Assembly: GCF_000007225.1 (NCBI RefSeq)
Contig: NC_003364.1
Span: forward strand, 1,470,001 to 1,502,000
Direction of reading: 5' to 3'
DNA: 32,000 bases
Source of the DNA: Pyrobaculum aerophilum str. IM2
GTDB lineage: Archaea; Thermoproteota; Thermoprotei; Thermoproteales; Thermoproteaceae
The notes beneath the pieces are model-generated. The model did no database searches and was not told where the DNA came from. It worked only from the letters and a program-made list of their open reading frames with translations. Positions 6,652-28,709 of the stretch are shown here, piece by piece; position 1 is the first letter of the stretch; each line of letters begins with the position of its first letter. The translations under genes were made by a program, and so were the position numbers.

Positions 6652-7788
6652 ATGGGATGGTCTGAATATGAAGTGTCTTTAAAAATTATTAGAGAATTTG
6701 TAAACCAGTATGTAAGGACGCGGGCTAGGGATATTGATAGGGGCGCCTATCCCAGGGATATCATTAGGAAATTAGGTGAGCTCAACTTCCTCGCCCCCAC
6801 GTTGCCTCCGGAGTTTGGCGGCGCTGGCGCAGATACTCTAACTCACATACTAGTGGTGGAGGAGCTAGCTAGGGCCAGCCCTGGCGTGGCCACTATTATG
6901 GAGATACAGAGCTCTATGATTGCCGAAAATATATATCACAACGGGACGAAGAGAATGAAGGAGGAAATCCTGCCGAAAGTCGCCGCCGGAGAGGTAATCG
7001 TCGCCTTCGCCCTCTCGGAGCCTTGTTGCGGCTCAGACGCAGCGGCTATACGAACTAGGGCTGAGAAAATCGGCGGGGAGTGGGTTATAAACGGCCACAA
7101 GATGTGGATAACTAGCGGCTTATATGCAGACTACTACCTCCTCTTCGCGAGGACGGGCCCGCTTGAGGCGAGGCATAAGGCAATTACGGCGTTTTTAATA
7201 CCGCGGAGTAATTGTGTGGAGGCAACCCCCATTGAGGTAATGGGGGTGAGGGGCACTGGCACCGCCGAGGTAAAATTCAACAGCTGTAAAGCCGGCGACG
7301 AGGACGTAGTAGGCGAGGTGAACGGGGGATGGAGTGTGGCCATGTGGGGGATAAATATGGGGAGACTTAACGTAGGGGCCATAGGGCTGGGAATCGCCGA
7401 GGAGGCCTTTTACCAGGCGTATGATTACGCGCACAAGAGAGAGGCCTTTGGGAGGCTCATAGCGGATTTCCAAGCAATTCAGCACTACCTGGCGGAGATG
7501 TACGCAAGAGTAGAGGCGCTGAGGGCGTTAGTATACAAAACGGCTAAGATGCGGGACGAGAACCACCCAGATTTTCCGCTGTATGCCCAAGTGGCTAAGC
7601 TAATGGGCTCGCGTACTGCCGTTGAAACGGCCAGATTGGCGGTTCAAATTCTAGGCGGCTACGGCTACTCCACGGACTCCCATGTGGAGATGCTGTACCG
7701 CGACGCCAAAGTGACAGAGATCTACGAGGGGACAAATGAAATTATATTAAATACAATATATAAGTTCTTAAAGTCGAAATTTACTTAG
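6652..7788 (+). CDS. Acyl-CoA dehydrogenase (paralog 1)
   Basis: The ORF opens at 6646 (TTG) and the first ATG is at 6652, 24 nt downstream of TTTTAAATTT. The ACAD signature ALSEPCCGSDAAA and the C-terminal YEGTNEI catalytic-Glu motif are present. Confidence 0.9.
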   Translation: MGWSEYEVSLKIIREFVNQYVRTRARDIDRGAYPRDIIRKLGELNFLAPTLPPEFGGAGADTLTHILVVEELARASPGVATIMEIQSSMIAENIYHNGTKRMKEEILPKVAAGEVIVAFALSEPCCGSDAAAIRTRAEKIGGEWVINGHKMWITSGLYADYYLLFARTGPLEARHKAITAFLIPRSNCVEATPIEVMGVRGTGTAEVKFNSCKAGDEDVVGEVNGGWSVAMWGINMGRLNVGAIGLGIAEEAFYQAYDYAHKREAFGRLIADFQAIQHYLAEMYARVEALRALVYKTAKMRDENHPDFPLYAQVAKLMGSRTAVETARLAVQILGGYGYSTDSHVEMLYRDAKVTEIYEGTNEIILNTIYKFLKSKFT

Positions 7789-9127
7789 ATTGTAAATATA
7801 CAGAGGCTTTTTTAATAGCTTTAATTATATTTAAATAGCCTGTACATCTACATATATTTTTTACAGAGAGCTTCAAGACGTCGTCTCTCGCCTGCGGGTC
7901 TATTCTCAAGTAGTCCACAGCGGCCATTATAAAGCCGTGGGTGCAGTAACCGCACTGCATGGCGTACTCTTCGAGAAACGCCTTTTGAACTGGGTGCAAC
8001 TGCCCCCCGCGCTGTAAGGAGCGCACGGTCTCCACTCTATGCCCCGCGGCTTGTACTGCGAAGATAGTACAAGACTTAACGGCGCGTCCGTCTAATAGCA
8101 CTGTGCACGCGCCGCAACGGCCCTCGTCGCACCCCCGTTTTACCTCTTTAAATCCCTTTTCCCTAAGGAAGTCAATAAGCAGTCTCCTCGGCTCCGCGTC
8201 AATTATGAACTCCCCGCCGTTTATCCACGCGGAGTTTCCCCCCGAGCCCCTCCACTTCTCCACCTCCCTCTTTTTAGGCAAAGTCCACTCGGCCCTCCCC
8301 GAGAGCTGGGCCAAGGCTTTTGACATAAAAATAGGCAAAAGCCTTCTCTTCTCATCGTATTTCATATGGGGATCGTCGTACGGCTCGCCTTCTGGCATTT
8401 CAGCGGCGATTTTATCAGCCCTATCCTTGGCCTCGGCCGGCGTTAAGCCGTCCAGCGCCCCCTCCAGCACCACGGGCCTTGTGTACAAGCCGCCTACTGC
8501 TATCCTTGATTTTGTCACAACGCCGTTTTCCTCCTCGGCGGCTACGGCTATTATCAGACTGGGATAGGAGGCGCCCCTCCTCTTATACACCACTACGCCC
8601 TGTCTGCTCCACTTAGGCACGGCTATCTCGACGACTAACCCGTCCTCGGCCTCCGTCTCGTAGGGGCCTTTAATAAACTGGGAGATGGGATATATGTAAA
8701 CGCCTTTTTTCCTCCTCACGGCTACTTCTGCGTTTAATGCGGCTAACACCGCCGGGTAATTAGCCGCGGGGTCTGCGTGGGCTAGGGAGCCCCCGATAGT
8801 TCCCCTATTTCTCACCTGGAGATCTGCTATATGCCACGCGGCCAAGGAGAGGGCAGGGGCCCACCTCACCACGGTCTCGTGCATCGCTACGTCGTTGTGC
8901 GTAAGTAAAGCGCCTATTTTCAGCTTCTCCTCCTCGCGTATATAGCGCAACTCGTCTAGTTCAAAGATGTCCACCAGCCCCTCGTGCGCAACTACGCCGA
9001 GTTTTAACAACGTGGAGATGGACTGGCCCCCTGCCAGCGGCCTATAGCCCTCCTCTACGTACTGCAACGCCTCCTCCACGCTGTTGGCTTTGATGTATTT
9101 AAAATGCCGGGGGTAGGGAGGTCTCAT
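7781..9127 (-). CDS. Fused FAD-binding (CoxM/XdhB-like) + [2Fe-2S] (CoxS/XdhC-like) subunit of a xanthine-dehydrogenase-family molybdoenzyme
   Basis: 448-aa ORF. The N-terminal half has LAGGQSISTLLKLG and RNRGTIGGSLAHADPAA (FAD_binding_5-type). The C-terminal part has C-x4-C-x2-C-x11-C (CDEGRCGACTVLLDGRAVKSC) and QCGYCTHG...CRCTGY. It is ATGA-coupled to the large-subunit gene. Confidence 0.87.
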   Translation of the reverse strand: MRPPYPRHFKYIKANSVEEALQYVEEGYRPLAGGQSISTLLKLGVVAHEGLVDIFELDELRYIREEEKLKIGALLTHNDVAMHETVVRWAPALSLAAWHIADLQVRNRGTIGGSLAHADPAANYPAVLAALNAEVAVRRKKGVYIYPISQFIKGPYETEAEDGLVVEIAVPKWSRQGVVVYKRRGASYPSLIIAVAAEEENGVVTKSRIAVGGLYTRPVVLEGALDGLTPAEAKDRADKIAAEMPEGEPYDDPHMKYDEKRRLLPIFMSKALAQLSGRAEWTLPKKREVEKWRGSGGNSAWINGGEFIIDAEPRRLLIDFLREKGFKEVKRGCDEGRCGACTVLLDGRAVKSCTIFAVQAAGHRVETVRSLQRGGQLHPVQKAFLEEYAMQCGYCTHGFIMAAVDYLRIDPQARDDVLKLSVKNICRCTGYLNIIKAIKKASVYLQSK

Positions 9128-11424
9128 AGCGGCAACGAGCTTATTGTCTTTTTGTATAAGTCCGCCACGGCGTTGGCAATAGCGGCCGGCGCCCCCATGA
9201 CTGGCCCCTCGCCTGATCCCAAAGCGCCTGAGGGGAGGTACCCCACGGGAGTCTCGAAATGAATTAATTCAACGTCCACGCCTACAAACTGGGACAAATC
9301 CGGCGTTCCGTAAGTCTCTAACAATAGGGACTTCGGCGACGCGTTTTCGTCATATTTCAATTCCTCATACAGCGCCATACAAACCCCGTGGTGTATCCCC
9401 CCGAGGAGCTGGCCCTCTAACAGCTCTTTTTTCAAAATCCTCCCGGCGTCGTGGGAAACGACGTATTTTAAAAGCCTAAGCTCGCCCTCTGCCTCCTCCA
9501 CTACAGCTAAATGGGCTTGTATTGCATACGCCGCGGAGGAGTTGACTCTATCCCCGACGGGGGCCTTGACCGTGGGCGGGTGGAAGAACACAGTAGCTGA
9601 GAGATTTGCGTCTACGCCCTCCGGCAAGCCGCCTGGATCCCAGTGGACGGCGGAGGCCAGTTGCCTTAAGTCAAGCTTCCTGTTGGGATTTGCCTCGTCG
9701 TATACAACCCCTTTTTGATACACGACGCGGCCCGCCCCTAATAACGCAGAGCCTAGAGCGATGATCTTCTCTTTAATTATCCTCGCCGCCAATATAGCCG
9801 CACTGGCGACCACGGGAGCGAATCTACTCGAATAACTCCCGCTGGACAACGACCAGGTTAGAGAGGTGTCAACTCTGTAAATCACTTTTACGTTACTGGG
9901 ATCTATTTCGAGCTCCCTCGCCACCACTTCGGCCAGCGCGGTCTCGTGGCCCAGCCCCTCGTTAGTGGCGTTTACAAACACATTCACCGCCCCGTGGGGA
10001 TCGACGCTTATAGTTACGTACTCCCCCGAGCCGGAGTGGGGGTACTTCCTCCTCTCCGCCTGTAGGGCCACGTCCACATAGCCCAGATTAGTTCCGCTCG
10101 GCTCGATAACCACAGCAATTCCCACGCCCACCCTCATCCCCCTCCTCTGCAAATCGCGCCATTTTCTATACTCCGGCTCCAGCGCTTTTAATACTCTGGC
10201 GTAATCTTGCATGGGGTAGAGGCCGCCAGTCACTGTTTCGTAAAAACGCCAGCCGTACTTTTCCAACGGGAATTGGCTTATTAGATTTCTCAGCCTTATT
10301 TCAAAGGGATCTATCCCAAGCCTCCTGGCCAATTCGTCCACCGCCCTCTCCAGCGCAAAGTAAAACTGAGGGCCTCCGTAACCTCTGTTAAGCCCCGTGG
10401 GCATTCTGTTAGTGAACACCACCGTATGCCTCACTTCAATAGCCCTTATGTCATAAGCGCCGTTTAAATTGCCGTGAACTCTATACAACGCCCCCGGCTC
10501 AGGCGGCCTAAGATAGGCGCCGACGTCTTCTACAAAGTCGTATTTAACGGCCAGTATACGCCCCTCTTTAGACGCGGCGATTTCCACAGTGCCGGCTCTC
10601 TCGCCGTTTGAACTACTGGCAACTAGGCTTTCAATCCTAGTTTCAATCCATTTCACAGGCGCGTTGGCAAGCCTTGAGGCGGTTGCGGCGAGAATTATAT
10701 AGGGATAGAGGGAGTATTTAATGCCGAAGCTGCCCCCTATGTCTCTGGGGGTTTGTAGCCTAATTTTTGAAGTGGGCAAGTCAAGCGCTCTTGATATGAA
10801 GTACATATAAAGGGCGGGGCCTTGGATATTTGCCCAAATCTCCAGCTCATCCCCCCTGTAGTCGGCGATTACTCCATACGGCTCTAACGGCATTGCAGTA
10901 TGCCTGGGGAATTTAAACTGGAACTTCTCCACCACGTCGGCGATTTTAAAGGCCTTGTCCACGTCGCCAAACGACATATGCCTCACAGTTGCGACGTTTG
11001 TGCCCAGCTCTTCGTGTACGAGCGCCCTCCCTCTGAGCGCGTCTTCTATAGACGCCACAGGCTCCAAGGGCTCGAAGTCCACATTGACGTAATCAAGCAG
11101 ATCAACGGCCTTGTACTTATCCCTGGCGAGGACCACCGCCACTGGCTCGCCGTAATACCTAGCTTTGCCGACGGCGATTGGATAGTATTTTATCGGCAGG
11201 CCCAAGGCGTTGGGGATGGGGTTTTTAATTATTCTCAAGAGGTCCTCTGGGGCGTAGGCCGCGCCCCCGCGCTTCCAGACGTCGGAAACGTCCACTTTTT
11301 TAATCCTCGCGTGGGGGTAGGGGCTTCTGTATATCGCCATGTGCAAAACCCCCCTGGGCTCGGGCAAGTCGTCTATGTACTCCCCGGCGCCAGTGACAAA
11401 CCTCAGCCCCTCTCTATAGGTCAT
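9124..11424 (-). CDS. Molybdopterin-binding large subunit, xanthine dehydrogenase / aldehyde oxidase family
   Basis: 766-aa ORF with FVTGAGEYIDDL at the N-terminus, GGSFGIK, TNRMPTGLNRGYGGPQF (XDH-type RG-F/Y-GGPQ motif) and the C-terminal GSGEGPVMGAPAAIANAV catalytic-Glu region. No CODH-type AYRCSFR motif is present. Confidence 0.9.
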   Translation of the reverse strand: MTYREGLRFVTGAGEYIDDLPEPRGVLHMAIYRSPYPHARIKKVDVSDVWKRGGAAYAPEDLLRIIKNPIPNALGLPIKYYPIAVGKARYYGEPVAVVLARDKYKAVDLLDYVNVDFEPLEPVASIEDALRGRALVHEELGTNVATVRHMSFGDVDKAFKIADVVEKFQFKFPRHTAMPLEPYGVIADYRGDELEIWANIQGPALYMYFISRALDLPTSKIRLQTPRDIGGSFGIKYSLYPYIILAATASRLANAPVKWIETRIESLVASSSNGERAGTVEIAASKEGRILAVKYDFVEDVGAYLRPPEPGALYRVHGNLNGAYDIRAIEVRHTVVFTNRMPTGLNRGYGGPQFYFALERAVDELARRLGIDPFEIRLRNLISQFPLEKYGWRFYETVTGGLYPMQDYARVLKALEPEYRKWRDLQRRGMRVGVGIAVVIEPSGTNLGYVDVALQAERRKYPHSGSGEYVTISVDPHGAVNVFVNATNEGLGHETALAEVVARELEIDPSNVKVIYRVDTSLTWSLSSGSYSSRFAPVVASAAILAARIIKEKIIALGSALLGAGRVVYQKGVVYDEANPNRKLDLRQLASAVHWDPGGLPEGVDANLSATVFFHPPTVKAPVGDRVNSSAAYAIQAHLAVVEEAEGELRLLKYVVSHDAGRILKKELLEGQLLGGIHHGVCMALYEELKYDENASPKSLLLETYGTPDLSQFVGVDVELIHFETPVGYLPSGALGSGEGPVMGAPAAIANAVADLYKKTISSLPL

Positions 11425-12200
11425 GCCCCCGTGTAGTTAGGCCTTCTTTTTTCAAAAAACGCCTTTATCCCCTCTTCGAAATCTCTGCTGTATCTCAAAA
11501 CCCCAAAGGTTTTACGCTCTAGGTCAAAGCCCACTTCCCTCGGCGCATCTGCTATCATAGACACCAGCTTCTTCGCCTCCTTTAAGGCAAGAGGCGGCAG
11601 CTCTCTGAGCTCTCTGGCGATTTCTAATACCCTCCCCCTCAGTCCCTCCGGCGGAACTACCTCGTCCACAAGCCCCAATTTCAGCGCCTCCTCTGCGGTC
11701 ATCCTCTTGCCCAATAGGATGTAGTACTTCGCCCTGAGAGGGCCCAGGGCTTTTACAAATCTAGTCAGGCCACCGCTGGCTGGCACCATTCCCAGCCTAA
11801 CCTCAGGGAGGCCGATTACGGCATTAGTTGAGGCGATGCGTATGTCGCACGAAAGGGCCAGCTCCAGCCCCCCTCCTAAAACATAGCCCTTTAATTCTGC
11901 TATAGTCGGTATAGGCAACTCCTCCAGCTCCACCAACGTCTTCCCCCAGTCTAACAGGTCTGTCGTAGTGGTTTTTAAAAACTCCCCCATATCGCCTCCG
12001 GCCGAAAAAGCCCTATCCCCCGCAGAGGCCACTATTAACACCCGCGCCTCTGTTTTTAATAAATCCCCCAGGGCCTCGCCGATGGCGCGCCGCATTTCCA
12101 AAGTAATTATGTTTAACCTCTCGGGGTAATTTATTAACAGCTGGTATATCCCCTCCTCCACTTGCTCCAGCCTTATCTTCCCGCCGGCGTATTCCCTCAT
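11421..12200 (-). CDS. Enoyl-CoA hydratase/isomerase (crotonase) family protein
   Basis: Crotonase motifs are present: VASAGDRAFSAGGDMGEF and GYVLGGGLELALSCDIRIAS. The start is placed at Met24 of the ORF (ATG 12200..12198), which forms an ATGA overlap with the upstream aldehyde dehydrogenase stop. The stop is ATGA-coupled to the Moco large-subunit start. Confidence 0.85.
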   Translation of the reverse strand: MREYAGGKIRLEQVEEGIYQLLINYPERLNIITLEMRRAIGEALGDLLKTEARVLIVASAGDRAFSAGGDMGEFLKTTTTDLLDWGKTLVELEELPIPTIAELKGYVLGGGLELALSCDIRIASTNAVIGLPEVRLGMVPASGGLTRFVKALGPLRAKYYILLGKRMTAEEALKLGLVDEVVPPEGLRGRVLEIARELRELPPLALKEAKKLVSMIADAPREVGFDLERKTFGVLRYSRDFEEGIKAFFEKRRPNYTGA

Positions 12201-13633
12201 ATGGGGTACTTCCTCTCCCTCAGCGTAATAGTCAACCAGCGATCGTAAGTAGTCTCGTGGAAAGACCACTCGCCCCCCTCTCTGCCGAAGCCGCTCGCCT
12301 TAATCCCCCCGAAGGGCACGTGGGATTCCTCAAGCATTGTCACGTCGTTGATGTGCACCATGCCGCTTTCAATCGCCTCTGCGATTTTAAAGGCCCTATT
12401 TATATTAGTGGTAACCACCGCCGCCGAGAGGCCGTACTCCGTGTCGTTTGCAACTTCAACAGCCTCGTCGTCGTTTTTAACCGGCACCACCGGGCGTATT
12501 GGGCCGAAGACTTCCTCCCTCATAATTCTAAAATTCCTATCCACGTCGACGAATACAGTGGGCCAGAAATACGCCCCAGCCCTCTTCCCGCCCGTAAGCG
12601 CCCTGCCCCCTCTAGACACCGCGTCTTGGTAAAACCTCTCCATCTCGTCGGCTTGCCTAGGCGATATGAGGGGGCCTTGTTCCACCGTCCTGTCCCTCGG
12701 ATCTCCCACTTTAAGTTGAGAAACTCTCTCTACAAACTTCTTCACAAAGACGTCATAAACCCTCTCATGTACAATAATCCTCTTGCTAGAGGTGCAGATC
12801 TGTCCTTGGTGGAAAAAGGCGCCGAATACAGCTATTCTCACCGCCAGGTTTAAATCGGCGTCGTCTAGTATGATGAGCGGATCGCTGCCGCCGAGCTCCA
12901 GAGTAACCGTCTTCAACGCGCCACCAGCTTTACTAGCAATTTCCCTCCCCGTGGCGCTCTCGCCTGTGAAAGTGACGTGGGACACTTTTTTATTCACAAC
13001 TATTTCATCCCCCACGGTGGAGCCCGGGCCCACTACTAGGTTGAAAACCCCCTTGGGGAACCCGGCTTGGTGTATCATCTCGGCAATTTTAAAGCCGGTG
13101 ACGGGAGTCTCGCTGGCCGGCTTGTAAACAATGGTGTTCCCCGTAGCTAATGCGTGCGCGATTTTCTTCATGGATATTGAAAGCGGGTAGTTCCACGGCG
13201 TTATGACCCCCACCACTCCCTTAGGCCTTTTGAAAACCATTGACACAACTCCTTCAGCGTCTGATTGGAGCGTCTTCCCGCCGTAGTGTCTGGCCAGCTC
13301 CGCGGCGTTTCTCACAAGACGCTCAGTGAAGACAACCTCCCCCCACGCCTTTTTATATATCCCCCCGCCCTCTACCATTAAGATGTTTATTAACTCTTCC
13401 TCTCTGCTTTTAATAATTTCGTAAAGCTTATACAAATACTCCGCCCTTTTAATCGCGGGGAGCTGTGACCAAGCTTTGAGGGCGTCATACGCGGCGTCAA
13501 TAGCCGCTTTGGCGTCCTCCCGTTTTGAAACTGGCGTCTCAGCTATTACTGATCCGTCAATCGGCGAGTGTTTTGGCCTACGTTCTTCAACTTCAATAAA
13601 TTCACCATTTATATAGTTTTTAACTATAATCAT
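12197..13633 (-). CDS. NAD(P)+-dependent aldehyde dehydrogenase
   Basis: 478-aa ORF with ALDH motifs ITPWNYP, TLELGGSDP, FHQGQICTSSKR (catalytic Cys) and EEVFGP. TTATTTAAATATT lies about 27 nt upstream of ATG 13633. Confidence 0.9.
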   Translation of the reverse strand: MIIVKNYINGEFIEVEERRPKHSPIDGSVIAETPVSKREDAKAAIDAAYDALKAWSQLPAIKRAEYLYKLYEIIKSREEELINILMVEGGGIYKKAWGEVVFTERLVRNAAELARHYGGKTLQSDAEGVVSMVFKRPKGVVGVITPWNYPLSISMKKIAHALATGNTIVYKPASETPVTGFKIAEMIHQAGFPKGVFNLVVGPGSTVGDEIVVNKKVSHVTFTGESATGREIASKAGGALKTVTLELGGSDPLIILDDADLNLAVRIAVFGAFFHQGQICTSSKRIIVHERVYDVFVKKFVERVSQLKVGDPRDRTVEQGPLISPRQADEMERFYQDAVSRGGRALTGGKRAGAYFWPTVFVDVDRNFRIMREEVFGPIRPVVPVKNDDEAVEVANDTEYGLSAAVVTTNINRAFKIAEAIESGMVHINDVTMLEESHVPFGGIKASGFGREGGEWSFHETTYDRWLTITLRERKYPI

Positions 13634-13770: not shown

Positions 13771-15651
13771 ATGGAATTATGGCGGCCAGAAAAACACCAC
13801 CTTGAGGAGTCTAATGTGGCAAAGTACATAACCTCCCACGGCATCAAGGGGCTTGACGACTTCCTCTCGCTCACTTTTGACAAGCCTGAGGAATTCTGGC
13901 GCTCCTTCGAGAAAGAGGTGTTGAAGCTTGGTTGGTACGAGGAGTACATAAAGGTGCTGGATCTATCCAAGGGAGTCCAATGGCCTAGGTGGTTCGTCGG
14001 CGGCAAGATCAACATAGCGGATCAGCTGGAGGATTCCTCCCGTCCCCTTGTCAAATGGGAGGGGGAAGACGGGTCGACCGCCGTCTGGAGCTATTCTGAG
14101 GTGCTCTACAAAGCCAAGGCGGTCGCCAGCTGGCTGAAGAGAAACGGGCTCGAGAAGGGGGATCGCGTGGCTATCTTCATGCCGATGGTGCCCGAGATAA
14201 TCCCGGTCATGCTGGGGGCCATCAGAGCTGGCGGCGTCATAGTCCCGCTTTTCAGCGGCTTCGGCAAGGAGGCCATAAGGGTTAGGCTCGAGGACAGCGA
14301 GGCTAAGTTCGTCTTCGCCTCCGATATCTCCTACAGGAGAGGCAAGGAGATCGATATGCTCTCGGAGCTGAGAGCCGGCTTGACGCCCTCAGTGAAGCGC
14401 GTGGTGGTGCAGGAACGCTCCGGACGTAGCAGCGGCTATACGCCGCTCTCCGAGGTCTTCAAGACCGGCGGCGACCACGTAGAGAGGGCAGACGCAGAGG
14501 ATCCCATCATGATTATATATACCTCGGGCACCACGGGGAAGCCTAAAGGCACCGTCCATACGCACGACGGCTTCCCCGTGAAGGCCGCCGCCGACGTCTA
14601 CTTCCACTTCGACGTGAGCGAGGGCGAGACCTTGAGCTGGGTGACAGACATGGGGTGGATGATGGGGCCTTGGATGGTCTTCGCCGCGTATCTGCTCAGA
14701 GGCTCCATGGCCTTCTTCGAGGGAGCTCCAGACTACCCCAAGGACAGACTCTGGCGTTTTGTGGAGCGCTTCAAGGTGAACGCCTTGGGCCTGGCGGCGA
14801 CGTTAACGAGATATCTCCGCTCCATAGGCGCAGCGGCGGAGCCCGGCCAGCTGGATTCGCTCAAAGCCTTCGGCAACACGGGGGAGCCCATAGACGTCGA
14901 GAGCTGGCTGTGGCTATACCGCATGGGAAGGGGGCGCATACCGATTATAAACTACTCCGGCGGGACCGAGATATCAGGGGGGATATTGGGTTGCTACGTG
15001 GTGAGGCCCATAAAGCCCAGCTCTTTCAACGGGCCTAGCATAGGCACTAAAGCCGCGGTGTTTACTGAGGATGGGAGGCCGGCCCCGCCTGGCGTTGAGG
15101 GAGAGCTCGTGGTACTCTCGGTGTGGCCCGGCATGACGAGAGGCTTCTGGAGGGATCCCCAACGCTATTTAGAGACTTACTGGAACAAGTGGCCTGGAGT
15201 GTGGGCCCACGGCGACGCTGCCGTAGTGGATGAAGAGGGCTTCTTTTACATACTGGGGAGGGCAGACGACACCATAAAGGTGGCCGGAAAGCGGCTGGGA
15301 CCCGCCGAGATTGAGACTGTCCTCAACGCCCATCCTGCCGTGGCCGAGTCCGCCTGTATAGGCGTCCCCCATGAGATTAAGGGCGAGGTGCCCGTATGTT
15401 TCGTGGTGTTGAAGCCGGGCTATGAGCCCAGTGAGGCCTTAAGGCGCGAGTTGATCAAGCTGACGGAGGAGGCCTTAGGCAAAGCCTTCGGCGCGGTGGA
15501 GGATATAAGGTTCGTCAAGATGTTGCCGAAGACCCGCAACGCCAAGATCATGAGGAGGGTGATAAGGGCGGTGTACTTAGGCCGCAACCCCGGCGACCTA
15601 TCGGCGCTCGAAAATCCGGAGGCCATAGAGGAGATAAAAAGAGCTCTGTGA
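13771..15651 (+). CDS. AMP-forming acyl-CoA synthetase, ACS/acetoacetyl-CoA-synthetase-like
   Basis: 626-aa ORF with YTSGTTGKPKG, HGDAAVVDEEG and LPKTRNAKIMRRVIR. The N-terminus (WRPEKHHLEESNVAKYI...PEEFWRSF) resembles the acetoacetyl-CoA synthetase-type leader. It is visibly more GC-rich than the paralog at 4430-6277. Confidence 0.9.
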   Translation: MELWRPEKHHLEESNVAKYITSHGIKGLDDFLSLTFDKPEEFWRSFEKEVLKLGWYEEYIKVLDLSKGVQWPRWFVGGKINIADQLEDSSRPLVKWEGEDGSTAVWSYSEVLYKAKAVASWLKRNGLEKGDRVAIFMPMVPEIIPVMLGAIRAGGVIVPLFSGFGKEAIRVRLEDSEAKFVFASDISYRRGKEIDMLSELRAGLTPSVKRVVVQERSGRSSGYTPLSEVFKTGGDHVERADAEDPIMIIYTSGTTGKPKGTVHTHDGFPVKAAADVYFHFDVSEGETLSWVTDMGWMMGPWMVFAAYLLRGSMAFFEGAPDYPKDRLWRFVERFKVNALGLAATLTRYLRSIGAAAEPGQLDSLKAFGNTGEPIDVESWLWLYRMGRGRIPIINYSGGTEISGGILGCYVVRPIKPSSFNGPSIGTKAAVFTEDGRPAPPGVEGELVVLSVWPGMTRGFWRDPQRYLETYWNKWPGVWAHGDAAVVDEEGFFYILGRADDTIKVAGKRLGPAEIETVLNAHPAVAESACIGVPHEIKGEVPVCFVVLKPGYEPSEALRRELIKLTEEALGKAFGAVEDIRFVKMLPKTRNAKIMRRVIRAVYLGRNPGDLSALENPEAIEEIKRAL

Positions 15652-15745
15652 TCGAGCATACAATGCTTATAGCGTAGGGGTAGCTTGACCTCAACGAAAT
15701 ATAAATAGAGGCGGCACCTCGTCCGTAACTGTTGTCTTTTATTAC

Positions 15746-15991
15746 GTGATACCGTGGCTTAAGAAGGCAGCGGGGGTCGGTAAAACGATGATCGTAGCCG
15801 ACGTTAGGTTGAGAGGGAAGCTCGAGGCCGACGTCTACGTCGAGGATATCGATAAACGCGAGGTGGAATATTCGCCGAGCCGCTTAGGCTATGTCTGCAC
15901 GGTAGAGCAATGTTATGCCGATATCTTGACGTACGGAGACGCTGGCCCTATCTGGTGGACCTACTATGGTCGTTTGGGCTATACGATGTGA
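15746..15991 (+). CDS. Hypothetical small protein (orphan)
   Basis: 81-aa ORF with a GTG start; an internal ATG at 15787 would give 67 aa. No family was recognised. A TATA-like AAATATAAATAG lies at about 15698-15710. Confidence 0.3.
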   Translation: MIPWLKKAAGVGKTMIVADVRLRGKLEADVYVEDIDKREVEYSPSRLGYVCTVEQCYADILTYGDAGPIWWTYYGRLGYTM

Positions 15992-16469
15992 ATAAGGTCT
16001 ATGCTCTGGCGGGCCCCCGAGGGAGAGCCGTCTTGGCGGCCTTAATGATCTAGGAGATGTTGCTCACAGGTCGTAACAGGTCCTGAGGGTCTTTTGATCC
16101 CTACAGGGAGGACTTCATGCCTTGACTCGATTACGTGGCGAGGTGGACGACGGGATAGATACTCGACAATGGCGCTAAAGATATCGCGTCAATTTAGGAA
16201 GCGTCCCCACTTTAGACAAGATCAAGCGGATCCTCACGAGACTCGGCGCGCGATCCGGCCAATCTCAGCAATTGTTGGCGGACGGGAAGAGGATAGCCTA
16301 CGTGTTGATATATTCCGATATCTTGAACAGATGGGGGTACATGTTGGGCTAAGGTCTATATATAATATTTAGTTCTGCCGAACATAGGGGAGCCCCTAGG
16401 TTCACGTTCGACGTAGACACCTCGCCGCCAGCGTTGACGGATAAGCTATCTGCGTTGAGATAAATCGCC

Positions 16470-16799
16470 GTGATAAACGCCAGCCTGCTGGAGGCGGGCT
16501 ACACGAAGGCCGTCAAGATACATAGATACGTCTACTTCGGGCTTTTCGAACATGACGTCGAGAAGTACGTTCTCCCCTATTTATTGCCGTTGAGAGTGCC
16601 GGTGTTGACTAGGTGGTCGGACGTTCCTCTGTGGGGCTACCTAGGGCGTCCTGGCGTATATGTCAGCTACGATGTCATCGCGGAGATCAAACGGATATCC
16701 GTTGAAACCCTGTGCGTAGATATGCCGGGGGGTGGATTACCTGAGGGCCGGCGTTTCAATAGAGCTCAAGCCGCCGGTGGAGGAATAGGGTGGCTTTAA
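16470..16799 (+). CDS. Hypothetical protein (orphan)
   Basis: 109-aa ORF with a GTG start. No motif was recognised. Confidence 0.3.
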   Translation: MINASLLEAGYTKAVKIHRYVYFGLFEHDVEKYVLPYLLPLRVPVLTRWSDVPLWGYLGRPGVYVSYDVIAEIKRISVETLCVDMPGGGLPEGRRFNRAQAAGGGIGWL

Positions 16800-16809
16800 G
16801 ATCTCCGTC

Positions 16810-17106
16810 TTGGTGTGGCAATTAGCCGAAAAGGCGAAGCATAAGATCATCGAGCCTGTGAGGCGGATCGATCACGACGTTCTGAAGGCCGTCTTGGATC
16901 TTAGAGCCATGTGGGCTGTGCCGAAGGAGGTAGCCGTCAGATATTTCGACGGAGTCCTAAAGGCGCAACTCGCCGAGGCCTTGCCACAAGTAGTCGACGT
17001 CGTCGGCGAATACTGGACGAGCCACCATTATGCGTTGGTGAGAGGTAAATACAGCTCTGTGGCCGAGGGGGTGGATAGGATCTTGAGGACATTGGAGGCG
17101 CTATAA
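16810..17106 (+). CDS. Hypothetical protein (orphan)
   Basis: 98-aa ORF with a TTG start, beginning 10 nt after the previous ORF. The composition looks helical. No motif was recognised. Confidence 0.33.
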   Translation: MVWQLAEKAKHKIIEPVRRIDHDVLKAVLDLRAMWAVPKEVAVRYFDGVLKAQLAEALPQVVDVVGEYWTSHHYALVRGKYSSVAEGVDRILRTLEAL

Positions 17107-17273
17107 ATCACACGCTGAGATTCTATCTGCATAGCACCTAGCCCGAGGACGCGCTCCGCCTCGGCGGATCCACCCGATCAATGTCGTGATGAAGCGAAAG
17201 TGGAGAACATGTATAACTTAATCAATTAGATTATACTTTCAATTGTTAAAAATACCTATTTTCTTTGTACTTA

Positions 17274-18416
17274 ATGAGGGTAGGAATAGCAGGCATAGGT
17301 TGGTTCGGGTTCCAGCCCGAGGTTGTGGACTACTCTTTCCGCGAGATGATGTTTAAAGCGGCTCAGAGGGCTTACGAAGACGCCGGCGGGCTAGACCCGA
17401 GAAGAGATGTAGACGCCTTTGTGTCTTGTCAAGAGGATTTCTGGGAGGGCATTGCCATTTCTGACGAATTTGCGCCGGATCCGATTGGCGGCGCCATGAA
17501 GTCCGTATACACAGTGACTGGAGACGGCCTGCAGTGTGTTGGGCAGGCCTATATGATGATTAAATCGGGCCTTTTCGACGTAGTTGTTGTGGAATCGCAC
17601 GCCAAGCCTTCTGACATAATGACGCTAAATGACGTCATGGCGATGGCCACGGATCCCATATACGTCAGGCCCCTCGGGCTGGACAACGTCCACGCGCTGG
17701 CAGCGCTGGAGGCCCGGGCTTATATGTCGAAATACGGCGTGACTGAGGAGCATTTAGACGCAGTTGTGGAGAAGGCGCATAAAGCAGGCGTGAAAAACCC
17801 AAGGGCAGCCTATGCCTCTCCCGGCAGGGAGAGATCGGCTACTCCAATTGTGGCAGATCCGCTGAGGGAGGCAGACATAGCGAAATTCGTAGACGCGGCT
17901 GTGGTTGTGGTCTTGGCGTCGGAAAGGGCTGTGAGGGAGTACACAGACACGCCGGTGTGGATAGACGGGGCGTGGTGGTCTACCGAGATATCCAGCCTCG
18001 AGCTCCACGACTGGTCCTTCCCCATACACGCGAGGGAGGCCGCTGACGGGGCGTATCAACAGGCCAAAATTGCAGACCCCGCCAAGGAGGTGGGATTCGC
18101 CGAGGTGGACAACCGCTACAGCTTTAAAGAGTTGCAACACATCGAGGCCCTTAGGCTTGCCCCCAAGGGGCTGGCAAAAGACCTCTTGGCCGACGGCGCC
18201 TTCTGCCCCGGCGGCAGACTCCCGGTGAATTTAAGCGGCGGCGCCCTCGCAGAGGGAGTGCCTTTTGAGGCACACGGCTTGGCCAGATTAAGCTACGCCG
18301 TGTGGGTAATGAGAGGCGATATAAAGGCGGAGGTGGATAGACGCGACGTCGCCGTTGTCCACAGCTGGAGAGGCGTGCCGACGACGACAAGCACAGCGGT
18401 GGTGTTGAGGATATGA
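17274..18416 (+). CDS. Thiolase-fold (SCP-x/Ltp-like) protein lacking the catalytic Cys and His
   Basis: The ORF opens at 17265 (TTG) and the first ATG is at 17274, about 24 nt downstream of TTAAAAATA. It has the thiolase layout (MRVGIAGIGWFGF, ...KSGLFDVVVVES..., VNLSGG). The nucleophile position is Val (YTVTGDG) and the GHP His position is Val (EGVPFEAHG). Confidence 0.85.
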   Translation: MRVGIAGIGWFGFQPEVVDYSFREMMFKAAQRAYEDAGGLDPRRDVDAFVSCQEDFWEGIAISDEFAPDPIGGAMKSVYTVTGDGLQCVGQAYMMIKSGLFDVVVVESHAKPSDIMTLNDVMAMATDPIYVRPLGLDNVHALAALEARAYMSKYGVTEEHLDAVVEKAHKAGVKNPRAAYASPGRERSATPIVADPLREADIAKFVDAAVVVVLASERAVREYTDTPVWIDGAWWSTEISSLELHDWSFPIHAREAADGAYQQAKIADPAKEVGFAEVDNRYSFKELQHIEALRLAPKGLAKDLLADGAFCPGGRLPVNLSGGALAEGVPFEAHGLARLSYAVWVMRGDIKAEVDRRDVAVVHSWRGVPTTTSTAVVLRI

Positions 18417-19600
18417 CGAGCCGTAATATTAATTTTAAGCACCGCGTCGCCGTCGTGGGCGCCGGCCTTACTTTATTCAGAAGCAGAATGTTAGAGACCC
18501 CCCAAGAGCTGGCCTGGCTTGCGGCAAAACAGGCGCTGGACGAGGCAGGCCTCACGCTGAAGGATATAGACTGCGTCGTGATCGGGAGCGCCCCCGATGC
18601 TTTCGACGGCGTTCACATGAAGGGGGAGTATTTGGCCGAGGGCGCCGGGGGCATCCACAAGCCAGTTATAAGGGTGTTCGTAGGCGGCGCTACTGGCGTC
18701 TTCGTCCCAATAGCCGCGTGGTGGCATGTGGCATCTGGTCTCTGCAAGAAAGTACTGGCGGTGGCTGAGGAGAAGATGAGCCACGCGGCTAAACCGCATA
18801 CCCAGTACGTCTTCCGCTACATATGGGATCCCATAGTGGAAAAGCCGTTGAACCCCAACTTAATATGGATATTCGCCATGGAGATGCACCGCTATATGTA
18901 TAAATGCGGCGTGAAGAAGGAGGACATAGCGCTGGTGTCAGTGAAGAACAAGCGCAATGCGTGCGGCCATCCCTCGGCCCAGCTCTGCATGCCTAACATC
19001 ACGGTTGACGACGTGTTAAAAAGCGAAGTGCTGGTGTGGCCAGTACAACTGTTAGACATATCTCCCACTAGCGACGGAGCCGCCGCCGTTGTCTTAGCCA
19101 GCGAGGAGGAGGCCAGGAGGATAACAGACACGCCAGTGTGGATAAAGGGCATCGGCTGGACTTTAGACACCACCCACTGGACCAACCGCGATCTGGCATA
19201 CCCAGAGTACGTGCGGCGCGCGGCTGAAATGGCCTACCGCATGGCTGGAATTGACAACCCCAGGAAGCAGATAGACGTGGCGGAGCCCTACGATCCCTTC
19301 GACTACAAGGAGCTTCACCACATGGAGGGGCTGGGCCTTGCCAGGAAGTGCGAAGCGCCGATATTGACGAGGGAGGGCGTGACCCAGAGAGACGGGGATC
19401 TCCCCATAAACCCGTCTGGCGGCCTCCTGGGAGTCGGCAACCCCATCGCCGCGGCGGGGCTGATGAAAGTGGCTGAGATCTTCTGGCAAGTAAGGGGGGA
19501 GGCAGGGGCTAGGCAAGTCAAGAAGCCTGTCTACACAGGCTTGGCGCAGGCGTGGGGCGATTTAATGCAGGCAGGTACTGTGATAGTGATGGGAATATGA
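18413..19600 (+). CDS. Thiolase-fold (SCP-x/Ltp-like) protein lacking the catalytic Cys and His (second paralog)
   Basis: 395-aa ORF, ATGA-coupled on both sides. It has VAVVGAGLTLF, ...ASGLCKKVLAVAEEKMS and INPSGG. The nucleophile position is Gly (VFVGGATG) and the His position is Asn (VGNPIAAAG). Confidence 0.85.
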   Translation: MTSRNINFKHRVAVVGAGLTLFRSRMLETPQELAWLAAKQALDEAGLTLKDIDCVVIGSAPDAFDGVHMKGEYLAEGAGGIHKPVIRVFVGGATGVFVPIAAWWHVASGLCKKVLAVAEEKMSHAAKPHTQYVFRYIWDPIVEKPLNPNLIWIFAMEMHRYMYKCGVKKEDIALVSVKNKRNACGHPSAQLCMPNITVDDVLKSEVLVWPVQLLDISPTSDGAAAVVLASEEEARRITDTPVWIKGIGWTLDTTHWTNRDLAYPEYVRRAAEMAYRMAGIDNPRKQIDVAEPYDPFDYKELHHMEGLGLARKCEAPILTREGVTQRDGDLPINPSGGLLGVGNPIAAAGLMKVAEIFWQVRGEAGARQVKKPVYTGLAQAWGDLMQAGTVIVMGI

Positions 19601-20136
19601 CCGGCGCCACTAAACCCCTAAACCCAAGAGGCACTAAATACGAGCGCGTGGACTTCCCGGTATTTGAGTTCCCCGTTGTCGGCAAGGCCCGTTACAACTA
19701 CACGACAGGCGAGGCGCTGGGCCGCTTCCTGGCGGGGCTGAAAGAGGGGAGGATACTGGGCACCTACTGTAATAAATGCGGGAGGGTCTTCGTGCCTCCG
19801 CGTATGTACTGCTCCTACTGCTTTAGAGAGGTGGACGGGTGGGTGGAGGCTAAGGACGAGGGCGTTGTGGTCACGGCGGTGATGAGCTATATATCTGCCA
19901 CAAGGGCGAGGCTCGAGAAGCCTGTGGCCGTGGGCGTCATAAAGCTCGACATACCCGGCAGGCAGTTTGACGACCACTTCTTCCCCGGCATTATGCACTA
20001 TATATGCGGCGCCACTGAGGAGGACGTGAAGTCCATGCGGATATTCGGGGCCAAGGTGAAGGCCAAGTGGAAGCCTTATGAGCAGAGAACTGGCTCAATC
20101 ACAGATATAGAATGTTTTGAGCTGGTGAGGCCATGA
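19597..20136 (+). CDS. DUF35 OB-fold / Zn-ribbon protein (long form)
   Basis: The start is placed at ATG 19597, which forms an ATGA overlap with the upstream stop; the ORF opens at 19552. A four-Cys ribbon CNKCGRVFVPPRMYCSYC is present. It is 179 aa and carries an N-terminal extension relative to the protein at 4099-4443. Confidence 0.83.
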   Translation: MTGATKPLNPRGTKYERVDFPVFEFPVVGKARYNYTTGEALGRFLAGLKEGRILGTYCNKCGRVFVPPRMYCSYCFREVDGWVEAKDEGVVVTAVMSYISATRARLEKPVAVGVIKLDIPGRQFDDHFFPGIMHYICGATEEDVKSMRIFGAKVKAKWKPYEQRTGSITDIECFELVRP

Positions 20137-20564
20137 GGCGCATTAAGTACTTCCCCGAGGTGATGGAGATCGAGGCTTACGTGTACACGGCAGGCCCAAT
20201 AGGCACTAAATGGCTTGAGACCCTCAAGGCCGGGCGGCTGACGGCGGCTTACTGTCCCAAATGCGGCCGGCTCTTCCTGCCGCCAAAGATGTACTGCCCC
20301 TTCGACTTCGAGGAGGTGAAAGAGCTGAGGGAGATAGCGCCTCTAGGCGTTGTGGAGAGTTACACTGTCATAGAGATGGATTTCTACGGCGAGCCGCTGA
20401 AGGAGAAGAAAGTACTTGCTTTCATAAAGTTCCCTGGGGTGGAGGGCGGATTGTTACACTACGTGAAGTCCGACAAGCCGAGGGTGGGCATGAAGGTCAA
20501 GCCCAAGTGGCGCGACGAGAGGAGGGGGCTGGTGACGGACATAGAGTACTTCGAGGAGGCATGA
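20133..20564 (+). CDS. DUF35 OB-fold / Zn-ribbon protein (variant ribbon)
   Basis: 143-aa ORF, ATGA-coupled on both sides. The ribbon reads CPKCGRLFLPPKMYCPFD, with the fourth Cys replaced by Asp. Confidence 0.83.
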   Translation: MRRIKYFPEVMEIEAYVYTAGPIGTKWLETLKAGRLTAAYCPKCGRLFLPPKMYCPFDFEEVKELREIAPLGVVESYTVIEMDFYGEPLKEKKVLAFIKFPGVEGGLLHYVKSDKPRVGMKVKPKWRDERRGLVTDIEYFEEA

Positions 20565-21703
20565 GCCTATTGACTCAAGAACACGAACTCGCCAGAAAGA
20601 CTGCGAGAGAATTCGCCGAGAAATACGTCGATCCCATTGTGCGCAAAATGGACAGAGAAAACTACTACCCCCGTGAGACAATAAGAGACGCTGGCGAGCT
20701 CGGCATCCTCACGCCGACGGTGCCAGCTGAGTATGGGGGAGGCGGAGGGGATTTGAGGACCGCAGTTGTAGTACTAGAGGAATTGGGCAGAATCAGCGGG
20801 GGGTTTAGCTTGCTGGTAGAGGCGCTGGGCATACTCTTTGCCGACGCCGTTAATAAACACGCATCTAAGAGGCAGAAGGAAGAGATACTTCCCAAGATCG
20901 CCTCTGGGGAAAAAATAGGCGCCTTTGCCCTCTCCGAGCCTTGTTGCGGCTCAGACGCGGCGGCAATTCAGACGGCGGCAGTTAGAAGGGGAGGGGAGTG
21001 GGTTATAAACGGCCACAAGATGTGGATAACTAATGGCCACTACGCCGATTATTACCTAGTGGCCGCAAGGACTGGGCCCAGAGAGGCGAGACACAAGGCA
21101 ATAACAGTCTTTCTCTTAAAGAGGAGCAACTGCGTCGAGACCTCGCAAATTGAAGTAATGGGAGTGAGGGGCACTGGCACCGCCGAGGTAAAATTTAACA
21201 ACTGCGCGGCAAGCGATGATGATATTGTAGGCGAGGTGAACGGGGGTTGGAAGGTAATAGTAGACACTCTAAACGTGGGGAGGACGGCGATATCTGGAGT
21301 GACCGTGGGCATAGCCCGCGGCGCGTTTGAGGAGGCGTTGAAATGGGCGAGGAACAGAGAGCTATTTGACCGGAAGCTAATAGAATTTCAAAACACCCAG
21401 TTTGAACTCGCCGAAATGTACGCCTCTATTGAAACCGCCAGGACTCTGGCTTATTACGCCGCCTACCTCTACGACATAAACTCGCCGGGCTTTCTCATAA
21501 TGTCTCATGTGGCAAAGCTCCAGACAGCCCGCATAGCAGTAGACGTGACGAGGAGGGCGGTGCAAATAGAGGGGGGCTTTGGCTACAGCAAGGAGAGCAA
21601 GGCCGAGATGTTCTACAGAGACGCCAAGATATTAGAAATAGGCGAGGGGACAAACGAGGTGATGAAATACGTAATCTACAAACTAATCGAAAAAGGCCAG
21701 TAG
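20561..21703 (+). CDS. Acyl-CoA dehydrogenase (paralog 2)
   Basis: The start is placed at ATG 20561 (MSLLTQEHELARKTAREF...), which forms an ATGA overlap with the DUF35 stop. The 480-aa ORF in the track is an upstream out-of-context extension. ALSEPCCGSDAAA and GEGTNEV motifs are present. Confidence 0.9.
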   Translation: MSLLTQEHELARKTAREFAEKYVDPIVRKMDRENYYPRETIRDAGELGILTPTVPAEYGGGGGDLRTAVVVLEELGRISGGFSLLVEALGILFADAVNKHASKRQKEEILPKIASGEKIGAFALSEPCCGSDAAAIQTAAVRRGGEWVINGHKMWITNGHYADYYLVAARTGPREARHKAITVFLLKRSNCVETSQIEVMGVRGTGTAEVKFNNCAASDDDIVGEVNGGWKVIVDTLNVGRTAISGVTVGIARGAFEEALKWARNRELFDRKLIEFQNTQFELAEMYASIETARTLAYYAAYLYDINSPGFLIMSHVAKLQTARIAVDVTRRAVQIEGGFGYSKESKAEMFYRDAKILEIGEGTNEVMKYVIYKLIEKGQ

Positions 21704-27944: not shown

Positions 27945-28709
27945 GTGTATTCGCATGTGAAAGTTTTGGAGAGATTGCGCCGGCAGTTGGAGCTTATAAA
28001 GGGTTATGCGGTCGAGTTGGAATCTGAGCGTAGTTACCGCGGGATTGAGAGGCTGGAGCAACTCATAATTCAAGCCTTGTTAGATCTCGGCGTGATGGCC
28101 TTATCTGCGCTAGGCGCAACGCCCCCTCGCGTTTATGCCCAGATTGGCGAGGCGTTGCACCGCCATGGCGTTTTGCCGCTGGAGGAGGCATCAATTTTGA
28201 GGGCGTTGGCAGGCCTGAGGAATATTCTAGTGCACGGCTACGCGGCGGTGGAGCCTGAAAAGATACTGGAGTACTCCAGGAAAATTGGGCGCGACGCGTT
28301 TAGAATTGCCGAAATGATCGTGGCGGCGGTAGAGGCAAGGGGGGCAGATCCGCCTGGCCCTGTGGAAAAAATAAGAAGTGTGCTTCAGGGGAGGGTCAGG
28401 CTTGCCTACCTCTTTGGGGGCAGGGCGAAGGGCTACGTCCTCAAGGGGGATTACGACGTGGCGGTGTATCTGGACGGCGGCTGTGATCTCTACGCGTTGG
28501 GCCTCATACAGGCGGATCTCTCAGAGGCTTTGGGGGACGAGCGGGTTGACGTGGTTTGTCTAAACTCGGCGCCGCCTGAATTAGTATTTGAGGCCCTCTC
28601 CGGCATCCCTATTATCGACGACGTGGCTCTAAGGGCTGAGCTCTACGCTAAGGCCCTCGCCGAGTTAAACGATGTTAATATAACAGTCAAACGCGCCTAC
28701 ACGCCATAG
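27945..28709 (+). CDS. Single-chain HEPN (DUF86/HepT-like) - minimal nucleotidyltransferase (MNT/MntA-like) fusion
   Basis: 254-aa ORF. The N-terminal domain has the DUF86 R-x4-H motif (GLRNILVHGY). The C-terminal domain has the MNT signature LFGGRAKGYVLKGDYDVAVYL (hG[GS]...D-x-D) and the VDVVCLNSAPPEL tail. The start is either GTG 27945 or in-frame GTG 27957. Confidence 0.8.
   Translation: MYSHVKVLERLRRQLELIKGYAVELESERSYRGIERLEQLIIQALLDLGVMALSALGATPPRVYAQIGEALHRHGVLPLEEASILRALAGLRNILVHGYAAVEPEKILEYSRKIGRDAFRIAEMIVAAVEARGADPPGPVEKIRSVLQGRVRLAYLFGGRAKGYVLKGDYDVAVYLDGGCDLYALGLIQADLSEALGDERVDVVCLNSAPPELVFEALSGIPIIDDVALRAELYAKALAELNDVNITVKRAYTP

Follow-up and report, generated by a model that had tools for sequence, protein, structure and literature searches.

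A window of 32,000 nucleotides from Pyrobaculum aerophilum str. IM2 (contig NC_003364.1, forward-strand positions 1,470,001 to 1,502,000; the window is this whole stretch) contains a plus-strand operon of five genes, and the first four, here called T1, T2, D1 and D2 or collectively the tetrad, are the subject of this analysis. T1 (17274..18416, 380 amino acids) and T2 (18413..19600, 395 amino acids) are SCP-x-type thiolase-fold proteins. Both match Pfam Thiolase_C_1 (6e-20 and 2e-32, respectively) and T2 also matches Thiolase_N, in agreement with the SCP-x layout assigned to both by an earlier reading made from the sequence alone (the sequence-only reading). D1 (19597..20136, 179 amino acids) and D2 (20133..20564, 143 amino acids) are DUF35 proteins that each match Pfam zf-ChsH2 and OB_ChsH2_C as well as PDB 3IRB (7.5e-19 for D1 and 1.7e-22 for D2), and they are distinct from one another, as had been claimed. 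The fifth gene (20561..21703) encodes a complete acyl-CoA dehydrogenase of the short/medium-chain type with three Pfam ACAD domains, which scores under every NCBIfam equivalog cutoff.

The four gene junctions (18413, 19597, 20133 and 20561) all read ATGA, with the stop codon of one gene overlapping the start codon of the next, and the sequence thus bears out the five reading frames and four overlaps described previously. The AT-rich box reported at 17246..17254 of the plus strand is also present; it reads GTTAAAAAT and lies 20-28 nucleotides 5' of the T1 ATG. From this position, the TATA-like GTTAAAAAT box may be the promoter (TATA box) of a leaderless crenarchaeal mRNA.

T1 and T2 each belong to an existing NCBI equivalog family, PRK06066 (NF004722) for T1 (601 bits against a cutoff of 516) and PRK06065 (NF004721) for T2 (784 bits), and both models are named just "thiolase domain-containing protein". 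In a homologue search, T2 was 100% identical to one protein of P. arsenaticum. Many databases label T1 and T2 as acetyl-CoA C-acetyltransferase (acetyl-CoA acetyltransferase). These labels are automatic transfers at the level of the fold and are functionally wrong, as the active sites described next indicate.

Active sites of T1 and T2

The catalytic positions of T1 and T2 were aligned by two routes, which agree: HMMER against solved thiolases, and MAFFT with PDB sequences in a set comprising the canonical thiolase of the window (2963-4102), the archaeal thiolases 7YVY and 6ESQ, BbsB, Ltp2 (6OK1), Sal (9MYR) and 4U4E. At the nucleophile site, where thiolases have Cys, T2 has Gly92 and T1 has Thr beside a three-residue deletion. 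The HD[CA]F motif of thiolases (His-Asp-[Cys/Ala]-Phe) is Tyr293-Asp-Pro-Phe in T2 and Asp-Asn-Arg-Tyr in T1, and the Gly-His-Pro (GHP) motif is Gly-Asn343-Pro in T2 and Gly-Val-Pro in T1. The canonical thiolase of the window is intact, as had been stated, and keeps its Cys, HDAF and GHP. The loss of the catalytic Cys and His that had been read by hand is therefore upheld by both routes, which place no Cys or His at the catalytic positions of either protein, and the Gly of T2 and the Val and Asn at the GHP His had been named correctly. Only the residue given for the Cys site of T1 was wrong, Val having been named instead of Thr, a minor slip without consequence for the loss itself.

These substitutions extend through the orthologues in the set of archaeal loci described below. 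Every one of the 76 T2 orthologues has Gly at the Cys site and every one has D-P-F, and Asn-Pro is found in all 72 sequences that are complete at the GHP site. The Tyr293 position is Tyr in 72 of the 76 and His in the other 4. Among T1 orthologues, the first HDxF position is occupied by Asp or Glu in 81 of 81. Because all three catalytic residues (the nucleophile Cys and the His of both HDxF and GHP) are absent family-wide, neither T1 nor T2 can be a Claisen thiolase: both have the thiolase fold but lack the residues (Cys and both His) that characterize Claisen-type thiolases (EC 2.3.1.9/2.3.1.16).

The two proteins do not look equivalent. T2 retains the substrate- (pantetheine-) tunnel motifs NPSGG and VKN..NA..P.A, and its identity between Pyrobaculum and the Sulfolobales, Desulfurococcales or Bathyarchaeia is 70-76%. 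Over the same archaeal comparison the identity is 42-55% for T1, 39-62% for D1 and 33-59% for D2; between the canonical thiolase and its counterpart in Bathyarchaeia it is about 46%. The retention of the tunnel motifs, together with 70-76% identity from Pyrobaculum to Bathyarchaeia, argues that the T2 active site is a constrained and working one. T2 thus looks catalytic, and T1 looks like a degenerate partner.

AlphaFold2 (AF2) models of T1 and T2 (mean predicted local distance difference test scores, pLDDT, of 91 and 86) are both standard SCP-x thiolase folds. The T1 model has template modeling (TM) scores of 0.85-0.91 to archaeal thiolases, and both models score 0.8-0.9 against solved thiolases. 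In a fold search, all close structural neighbors of the two models were SCP-x-type thiolase-fold proteins, and aldolases were not separated from thiolases. Many of these neighbors have a DUF35 partner: 6ET9, 7PXP, 5M3K, 6OK1, 9MYR and 9VBO.

A separate observation concerns PDB 4YZO, a "thiolase-like protein" from Sulfolobus tokodaii (ST0096). In the HMMER alignment to T2 it has Ser at the nucleophile position and keeps HD and GHP. To judge from this alignment, 4YZO belongs to a further non-canonical archaeal family that is distinct from both T1 and T2.

The two DUF35 proteins

D1 consists of a zinc ribbon and an oligonucleotide/oligosaccharide-binding (OB) fold, with about 45 additional N-terminal residues, and all four of its zinc-ligand Cys residues are kept in 64 of 64 sequences. 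The zinc ribbon of D2 is degenerate: just two Cys are invariant in the family, and the protein of the window has Asp58 at the fourth ligand.

The first DUF35 crystal structure, that of SSO2064, was published without an assigned function (PMC2954200). The SSO2064 fragment in PDB 3IRB is most similar to D2 genes from Sulfolobaceae loci (49-57% identity), and SSO2064 is probably a D2 orthologue. In a literature search, the archaeal tetrad was absent except for the SSO2064 structure paper and a mention of SSO2061 in proteomics.

A conserved four-gene unit in archaea

A pattern scan with one genome per species yielded 109 confirmed loci, and the counts given here refer to the 80 that were retained. 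These come from Pyrobaculum, Thermoproteus, Vulcanisaeta, Thermocladium, Sulfolobaceae, Acidilobaceae, Aeropyrum, Pyrodictiaceae, other Desulfurococcales and Bathyarchaeia. The complete T1-T2-D1-D2 set occurs in the same order in 44 of the 80, and most of the others are cut by contig ends. The arrangement is far from chance. Two loci, L014 and L015, have T2 on the opposite strand; they come from metagenome-assembled genomes assigned to Thermoproteales and Thermoproteaceae, neither of which bears the label Vulcanisaeta.

The sequence-only reading had treated the acyl-CoA dehydrogenase as part of the unit and had proposed that all five genes be checked for co-occurrence across Thermoproteales. 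The tetrad passes well beyond that order, and the dehydrogenase does not travel with it: a dehydrogenase gene adjoins the tetrad in just 12 of the 80 loci, downstream in Pyrobaculum and Thermoproteus and mostly upstream in other lineages, chiefly Sulfolobaceae. The conserved core is T1-T2-D1-D2, and the dehydrogenase is a lineage-specific addition, though translationally coupled in the window.

For the neighbor survey, three genes on each side were clustered over the 80 loci and cluster representatives were searched with Pfam. The commonest neighbor of the tetrad is an AMP-forming CoA ligase resembling acyl-CoA synthetases (ACS), present in 27 loci. Besides the acyl-CoA dehydrogenase, it is the sole neighbor to recur. 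The remaining neighbors are lineage-specific housekeeping genes, among them histidyl-tRNA synthetase (HisRS), a peptidase, NUDIX and CBS proteins and, in one lineage, the E2 and E3 components of a 2-oxoacid dehydrogenase. The survey found no carboxylase conserved near the tetrad.

The lineage with the 2-oxoacid dehydrogenase genes is related to Acidilobaceae/Desulfurococcales (L027, L041, L045, L046, L053, L054 and L061) and has a fixed tetrad neighborhood. A NUDIX hydrolase gene lies upstream on the opposite strand, and the tetrad is followed by a CBS protein gene and then by the E3 and E2 genes on the opposite strand; not all of these loci carry every gene. This neighborhood is a weak hint of branched-chain acyl-CoA metabolism.

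A counterpart in Actinobacteria

A tblastn search against plasmids led to a Streptomyces locus that contains a divergent acyl-CoA synthetase gene, a crotonase gene, and genes for a 313-amino-acid double-DUF35 protein, a 350-amino-acid PRK07937 "lipid-transfer protein" and a 388-amino-acid PRK08313 protein. A chromosomal copy in a second Streptomyces has the same gene content (the two loci are L082 and L086). Since the two DUF35 units are fused in Streptomyces, they presumably act together. On Acidimicrobiales contigs (L083-L085), two separate DUF35 genes precede two thiolase-like genes, and start and stop codons overlap. The first of these DUF35 genes shows an OB fold only, and the surroundings include genes for a short-chain dehydrogenase/reductase (SDR) and for a KshA-like Rieske oxygenase.

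The bacterial PRK07937- and PRK08313-type thiolase-like proteins are both Cys-less. The PRK08313 protein is 75-80% identical between Streptomyces and Acidimicrobiales, and PRK08313 proteins are 37-39% identical to T2, with which they have in common a Gly, a Y-x-P-F and an N-P at the active site (G, YVPF and NP in the larger Streptomyces protein; G, YAPF and NP in Rhodococcus; G92, YDPF and NP in T2). The second-best NCBIfam matches are reciprocal, from T2 to PRK08313 and from the Streptomyces PRK08313 protein to PRK06065. The curated cutoffs are not reached in either family, T2 scoring 292 bits against 514 for PRK08313 and T1 scoring 117 bits against 419 for PRK07937. Because its score falls below the PRK08313 cutoff, T2 is treated as a separate family.

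In a tree built by neighbor joining only, with 200 bootstraps, T1, T2, PRK07937 and PRK08313 group together, apart from the true thiolases and from Ltp2 and Sal, with 97% bootstrap support, and T1 pairs with PRK07937 at 70%. Ltp2, Sal and 4U4E form a group of their own (94.5%) on the thiolase side of the 97% split, which leaves T1 and T2 outside the Ltp2/Sal clade.

The actinobacterial gene order matches that of Rv3521-ltp4-ltp3 in M. tuberculosis, where ltp4 is Rv3522 and ltp3 is Rv3523 (PMC6429209). Three papers that cite the genetics of Wilbrink 2012 describe Ltp3-Ltp4 as a heteromeric aldol-lyase that is indispensable for sterol side chains with a branch at C24 (PMC6678751, PMC6593523, PMC6273163). 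A module of two Cys-less thiolase-fold proteins plus two DUF35 units, with the layout of Ltp3/Ltp4, thus appears to be common to archaea and Actinobacteria. The sequence-only reading had regarded the doubled, doubly inactivated arrangement as undescribed in archaea. This stands for the archaeal tetrad, and uniqueness does not, since Actinobacteria have the same module and the PRK06066 and PRK06065 models already exist.

A proposed retro-aldol function and its alternatives

Two characterized thiolase-fold aldolases serve for comparison. The catalytic base of Ltp2 is Tyr294 of a Y-D-H-F motif and its acid is Tyr344; Sal has Tyr302 of Y-D-C-Y as base, Cys304 as acid and a Gly in place of the thiolase Cys, and mutagenesis showed both base Tyr residues to be essential (PMC12329534). 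Because the Tyr of the T2 Y-D-x-F motif sits at the position of the catalytic base in Ltp2 and Sal, retro-aldol cleavage is the best available idea for the chemistry of the tetrad. The reading favored here, with modest confidence, is that the tetrad encodes a heteromeric retro-aldolase of the Ltp3/Ltp4 type in which T2 is catalytic; we infer the complex, the chemistry, its direction and its substrate. A weaker claim, that the four proteins form a non-thiolytic heteromeric unit of some kind, is more likely than the aldolase chemistry. The conserved, translationally coupled set of two thiolase-fold and two DUF35 genes fits a heteromeric complex.

In the proposed mechanism, T1, T2, D1 and D2 would assemble into one enzyme, with a T1-T2 heterodimer flanked by D1 and D2. 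The solved structures of Ltp2 and Sal are DUF35-aldolase-aldolase-DUF35 tetramers, of which this assembly would be the heteromeric equivalent. No thiolysis would take place. Instead, T2 would bind a 3-hydroxyacyl-CoA, with Tyr293 (His in a few orthologues) acting as general base on the 3-hydroxyl, and retro-aldol breakage of the C2-C3 bond would yield an aldehyde or ketone together with acetyl-CoA or some other short acyl-CoA. The part of T1, as a catalytically degenerate partner, would be structural. In Pyrobaculum, the substrate could be supplied from an acid that is converted to acyl-CoA by the ACS-type ligase, to enoyl-CoA by the coupled dehydrogenase and to 3-hydroxyacyl-CoA by an unlinked hydratase. 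Candidate substrates are the 3-hydroxy-3-methylacyl-CoAs derived from isoprenoid acids or from leucine (for example, 3-hydroxyisovaleryl-CoA, which would yield acetone and acetyl-CoA), an attractive but unsupported guess. A broader and rather improbable extension is that the tetrad is an ancient module of Thermoproteota/Bathyarchaeia and Actinobacteria, which in archaea would provide a carboxylation-independent retro-aldol step to take beta-oxidation past beta-branched carbons; its use by sterol degraders for side chains with a C24 branch would be a later recruitment.

Several observations weigh against the retro-aldolase reading. T2 lacks the acid of either characterized aldolase, with Pro295 at the position of Sal Cys304 and Asn343 at that of Ltp2 Tyr344. 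Three Acidilobaceae orthologues (L027, L041 and L046) and one from Stygiolobus (L059) have H-D-P-F, and the proposed base of T2 could accordingly be His in some members. The Vulcanisaeta loci (L012-L020) have adjacent T1 and T2 genes and no D1 or D2 within 8 kb on either side, and the 80-locus neighbor survey revealed no hydratase or other pathway enzyme conserved beside the tetrad. The archaeal hosts are without sterols. In the tree T2 joins PRK08313 with just 21% bootstrap support, which gives no specific pairing, and PRK08313 and the canonical archaeal thiolases are almost equally distant from T2, PRK08313 being slightly the nearer. PRK08313 is presumably Ltp3 and PRK07937 presumably Ltp4, an assumption based on gene order, the NCBI name and protein lengths; when the Streptomyces PRK08313 protein was used as the query for homologues, none of the matches carried the name Ltp3. 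The aldol-lyase role of Ltp3/Ltp4 comes from genetics only (Wilbrink 2012 via PMC6678751, PMC6593523, PMC6273163), and a literature search for Ltp3-Ltp4 biochemistry found genetics and reviews only.

The absence of all canonical catalytic residues raises the possibility that the tetrad has no catalytic role and binds CoA esters as a scaffold or regulator, which would organize or channel substrates for other enzymes such as a hydratase, reductase or dehydrogenase. In S. acidocaldarius, it is a DUF35 protein that brings a ketothiolase, a reductase and a dehydratase together (bioRxiv 10.1101/2024.07.05.601840). The DUF35/thiolase core that nucleates the Sulfolobus fatty-acid synthase, like PhlA beside the active PhlC, could serve as a precedent, and a large number of protein interfaces could account for the very high conservation of T2. 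The ketothiolase/DUF35 pair in the Sulfolobus work is catalytically intact (bioRxiv 10.1101/2024.07.05.601840). A scaffold would have no need for an invariant cluster of G92, D-P-F, N343-P344 and H302 at active-site positions, nor for the pantetheine-tunnel motifs, and the tetrad mostly stands alone, without conserved enzyme neighbors to serve. The bacterial relatives that have been studied genetically also act as enzymes (PMC6678751). A role as scaffold or regulator is considered unlikely.

Equally doubtful is another Cys-independent reaction on a CoA ester, such as decarboxylation of a malonyl- or beta-carboxyacyl-CoA (in the manner of a chain-length factor), hydrolysis or isomerization. Gln at the nucleophile position is typical of decarboxylating ketosynthase partners, and T2 has Gly there, not Gln. 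The lack of a recognizable aldolase acid in T2 would be explained, and the SLP protein of T. brucei, which is Cys-less and thiolase-like with a YDCF motif, slowly decarboxylates malonyl-CoA (PMC12329534); the rate was judged too low to be physiological and TbSLP was reinterpreted as an aldolase in the same work (PMC12329534). Carboxylation also precedes aldol cleavage in the proposed Ltp3/Ltp4 pathway (PMC6678751), but a conserved carboxylase is missing from the surroundings of the tetrad.

The last alternative, that T1 or T2 is still a thiolase with a relocated nucleophile such as Cys52 in the strongly conserved N-terminal SCQEDFWEG motif of T1, would agree with the acetyl-CoA acetyltransferase annotation of both in many databases, but it is very improbable, in that both thiolysis His residues are missing in T1 and T2, Cys52 is distant in sequence from the nucleophile loop, and this candidate was rejected when Val, Ser, Ala or Thr was found in its place in 14 of 81 orthologues.

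Surroundings of the operon

Upstream of the operon, on the same strand, lies ACS1 (13771..15651), which by Pfam is an AMP-forming acyl-CoA synthetase of the acetate/propionate/acetoacetate-CoA ligase family; its NCBIfam matches are all under cutoffs. ACS1 is of the ligase type that recurs beside the tetrad in 27 loci, and it is a possible substrate-activating enzyme for the tetrad. The 1.6 kb between ACS1 and T1 (15652-17273) contains four small plus-strand open reading frames (81-109 amino acids) with no Pfam match. This stretch is found again only in Thermoproteus sp. UBA157 (L007), and the gap between the ligase gene and T1 is about 100-300 bp in the other Pyrobaculum loci. The segment looks like a variable insertion.

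Divergent from ACS1, the minus strand of 7781-13633 encodes an aldehyde dehydrogenase, an enoyl-CoA hydratase, the large subunit of a molybdenum hydroxylase and a fused FAD/2Fe-2S subunit. Together with the dehydrogenase of the operon, these genes would span all steps of an aldolytic chain-shortening cycle. The neighborhood is not kept in other Pyrobaculum loci.

Elsewhere in the window, an ordinary thiolase/DUF35 pair with its catalytic residues kept is located at 2963-4443. A single open reading frame of 254 amino acids at 27945-28709 encodes both a HepT-like RNase domain and a nucleotidyltransferase domain and looks like a fused toxin-antitoxin-type pair. An Rfam scan of the window gave no matches.

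Implications

Hundreds of archaeal genes annotated as "acetyl-CoA acetyltransferase" cannot, on these alignments, be thiolases, and any metabolic reconstruction of Sulfolobales, Thermoproteales, Desulfurococcales or Bathyarchaeia in which T1 or T2 is counted as a thiolase is wrong on this point. SSO2064, the founding DUF35 structure and probably a member of a tetrad, gains a likely set of partners. The points that stand out are the breadth of the tetrad, the extreme conservation of T2 and the presence of the module in hyperthermophiles that have no sterols.

If the retro-aldol reading is true, thiolase-fold aldolases are widespread and represent a probably ancient way of cleaving 3-hydroxyacyl-CoAs, and not a specialty of steroid degradation. 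A thermostable archaeal complex would then be a tractable model for Ltp3/Ltp4 of mycobacteria and of industrial sterol-converting strains, and the tetrad could serve as a thermostable biocatalyst for the formation of C-C bonds. If in addition the substrates are beta-branched, the tetrad would fill a gap in the catabolism of isoprenoid lipids or branched chains in organisms with isoprenoid membranes.

Comparison with known systems

PhlABC and MucABC (5M3K, 9VBO) resemble the tetrad in having two thiolase-superfamily subunits, one of them inactive, and DUF35 in one complex. They differ in that PhlC retains Cys88, PhlA is KAS-III-like and not SCP-x-like, there is a single type of DUF35 subunit, and the chemistry is a Friedel-Crafts acyl transfer. 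Assignment of the tetrad as a PhlABC-type acyltransferase was rejected, as neither T1 nor T2 is KAS-III-like and neither has the Cys.

The archaeal complex of thiolase, 3-hydroxy-3-methylglutaryl-CoA (HMG-CoA) synthase and DUF35 likewise combines an SCP-x-type thiolase-fold protein with a stand-alone DUF35 partner, and its thiolase is the best structural match of T1 (TM 0.89-0.91). In contrast to the tetrad, the thiolases of the archaeal thiolase/DUF35 systems are intact (Cys, HDCF and GH), a single type of DUF35 is present, and the second large subunit is either HMG-CoA synthase or missing. Membership of the tetrad in an HMG-CoA synthase complex was rejected: there is no HMG_CoA_synt domain, and both large proteins are of the SCP-x type without Cys.

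Ltp2-ChsH2 (6OK1) and Sal-Shy (9MYR) are closer in active-site design. They have the thiolase fold, Gly occupies the nucleophile position as it does in T2, and a residue other than His is found at the GHP site (Asn in T2, Tyr344 in Ltp2 and Gln352 in Sal). The sequence-only reading had suggested looking for Ltp2-like Tyr residues: the base is there in T2, where Tyr293 aligns with Ltp2 Tyr294 and Sal Tyr302, the acid Tyr344 has no counterpart in T2, and T1, with Asp or Glu at the base position, does not match. Ltp2 and Sal need their DUF35 partner; in the tetrad it is the genes that show an association, the DUF35 genes being adjacent and translationally coupled. The identity of Ltp2 and Sal to T2 is no higher than 26-27%, and each is a homodimer with the same DUF35 domain on either side, fused to a MaoC hydratase.

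The nearest likeness is to the Ltp3/Ltp4-type module of Actinobacteria. There are also differences: the bacterial order is D-D-T-T and the archaeal order T-T-D-D, the bacterial DUF35 modules are often fused, a crotonase gene is adjacent in Streptomyces and not in archaea, and the PRK07937 protein has H-A-P-F and N-P where T1 has D/E-x-R-Y and V-P. Common to both domains are two adjacent paralogous genes for Cys-less SCP-x thiolase-fold proteins beside two DUF35 modules, overlaps between start and stop codons, and acyl-CoA synthetase genes in the vicinity.

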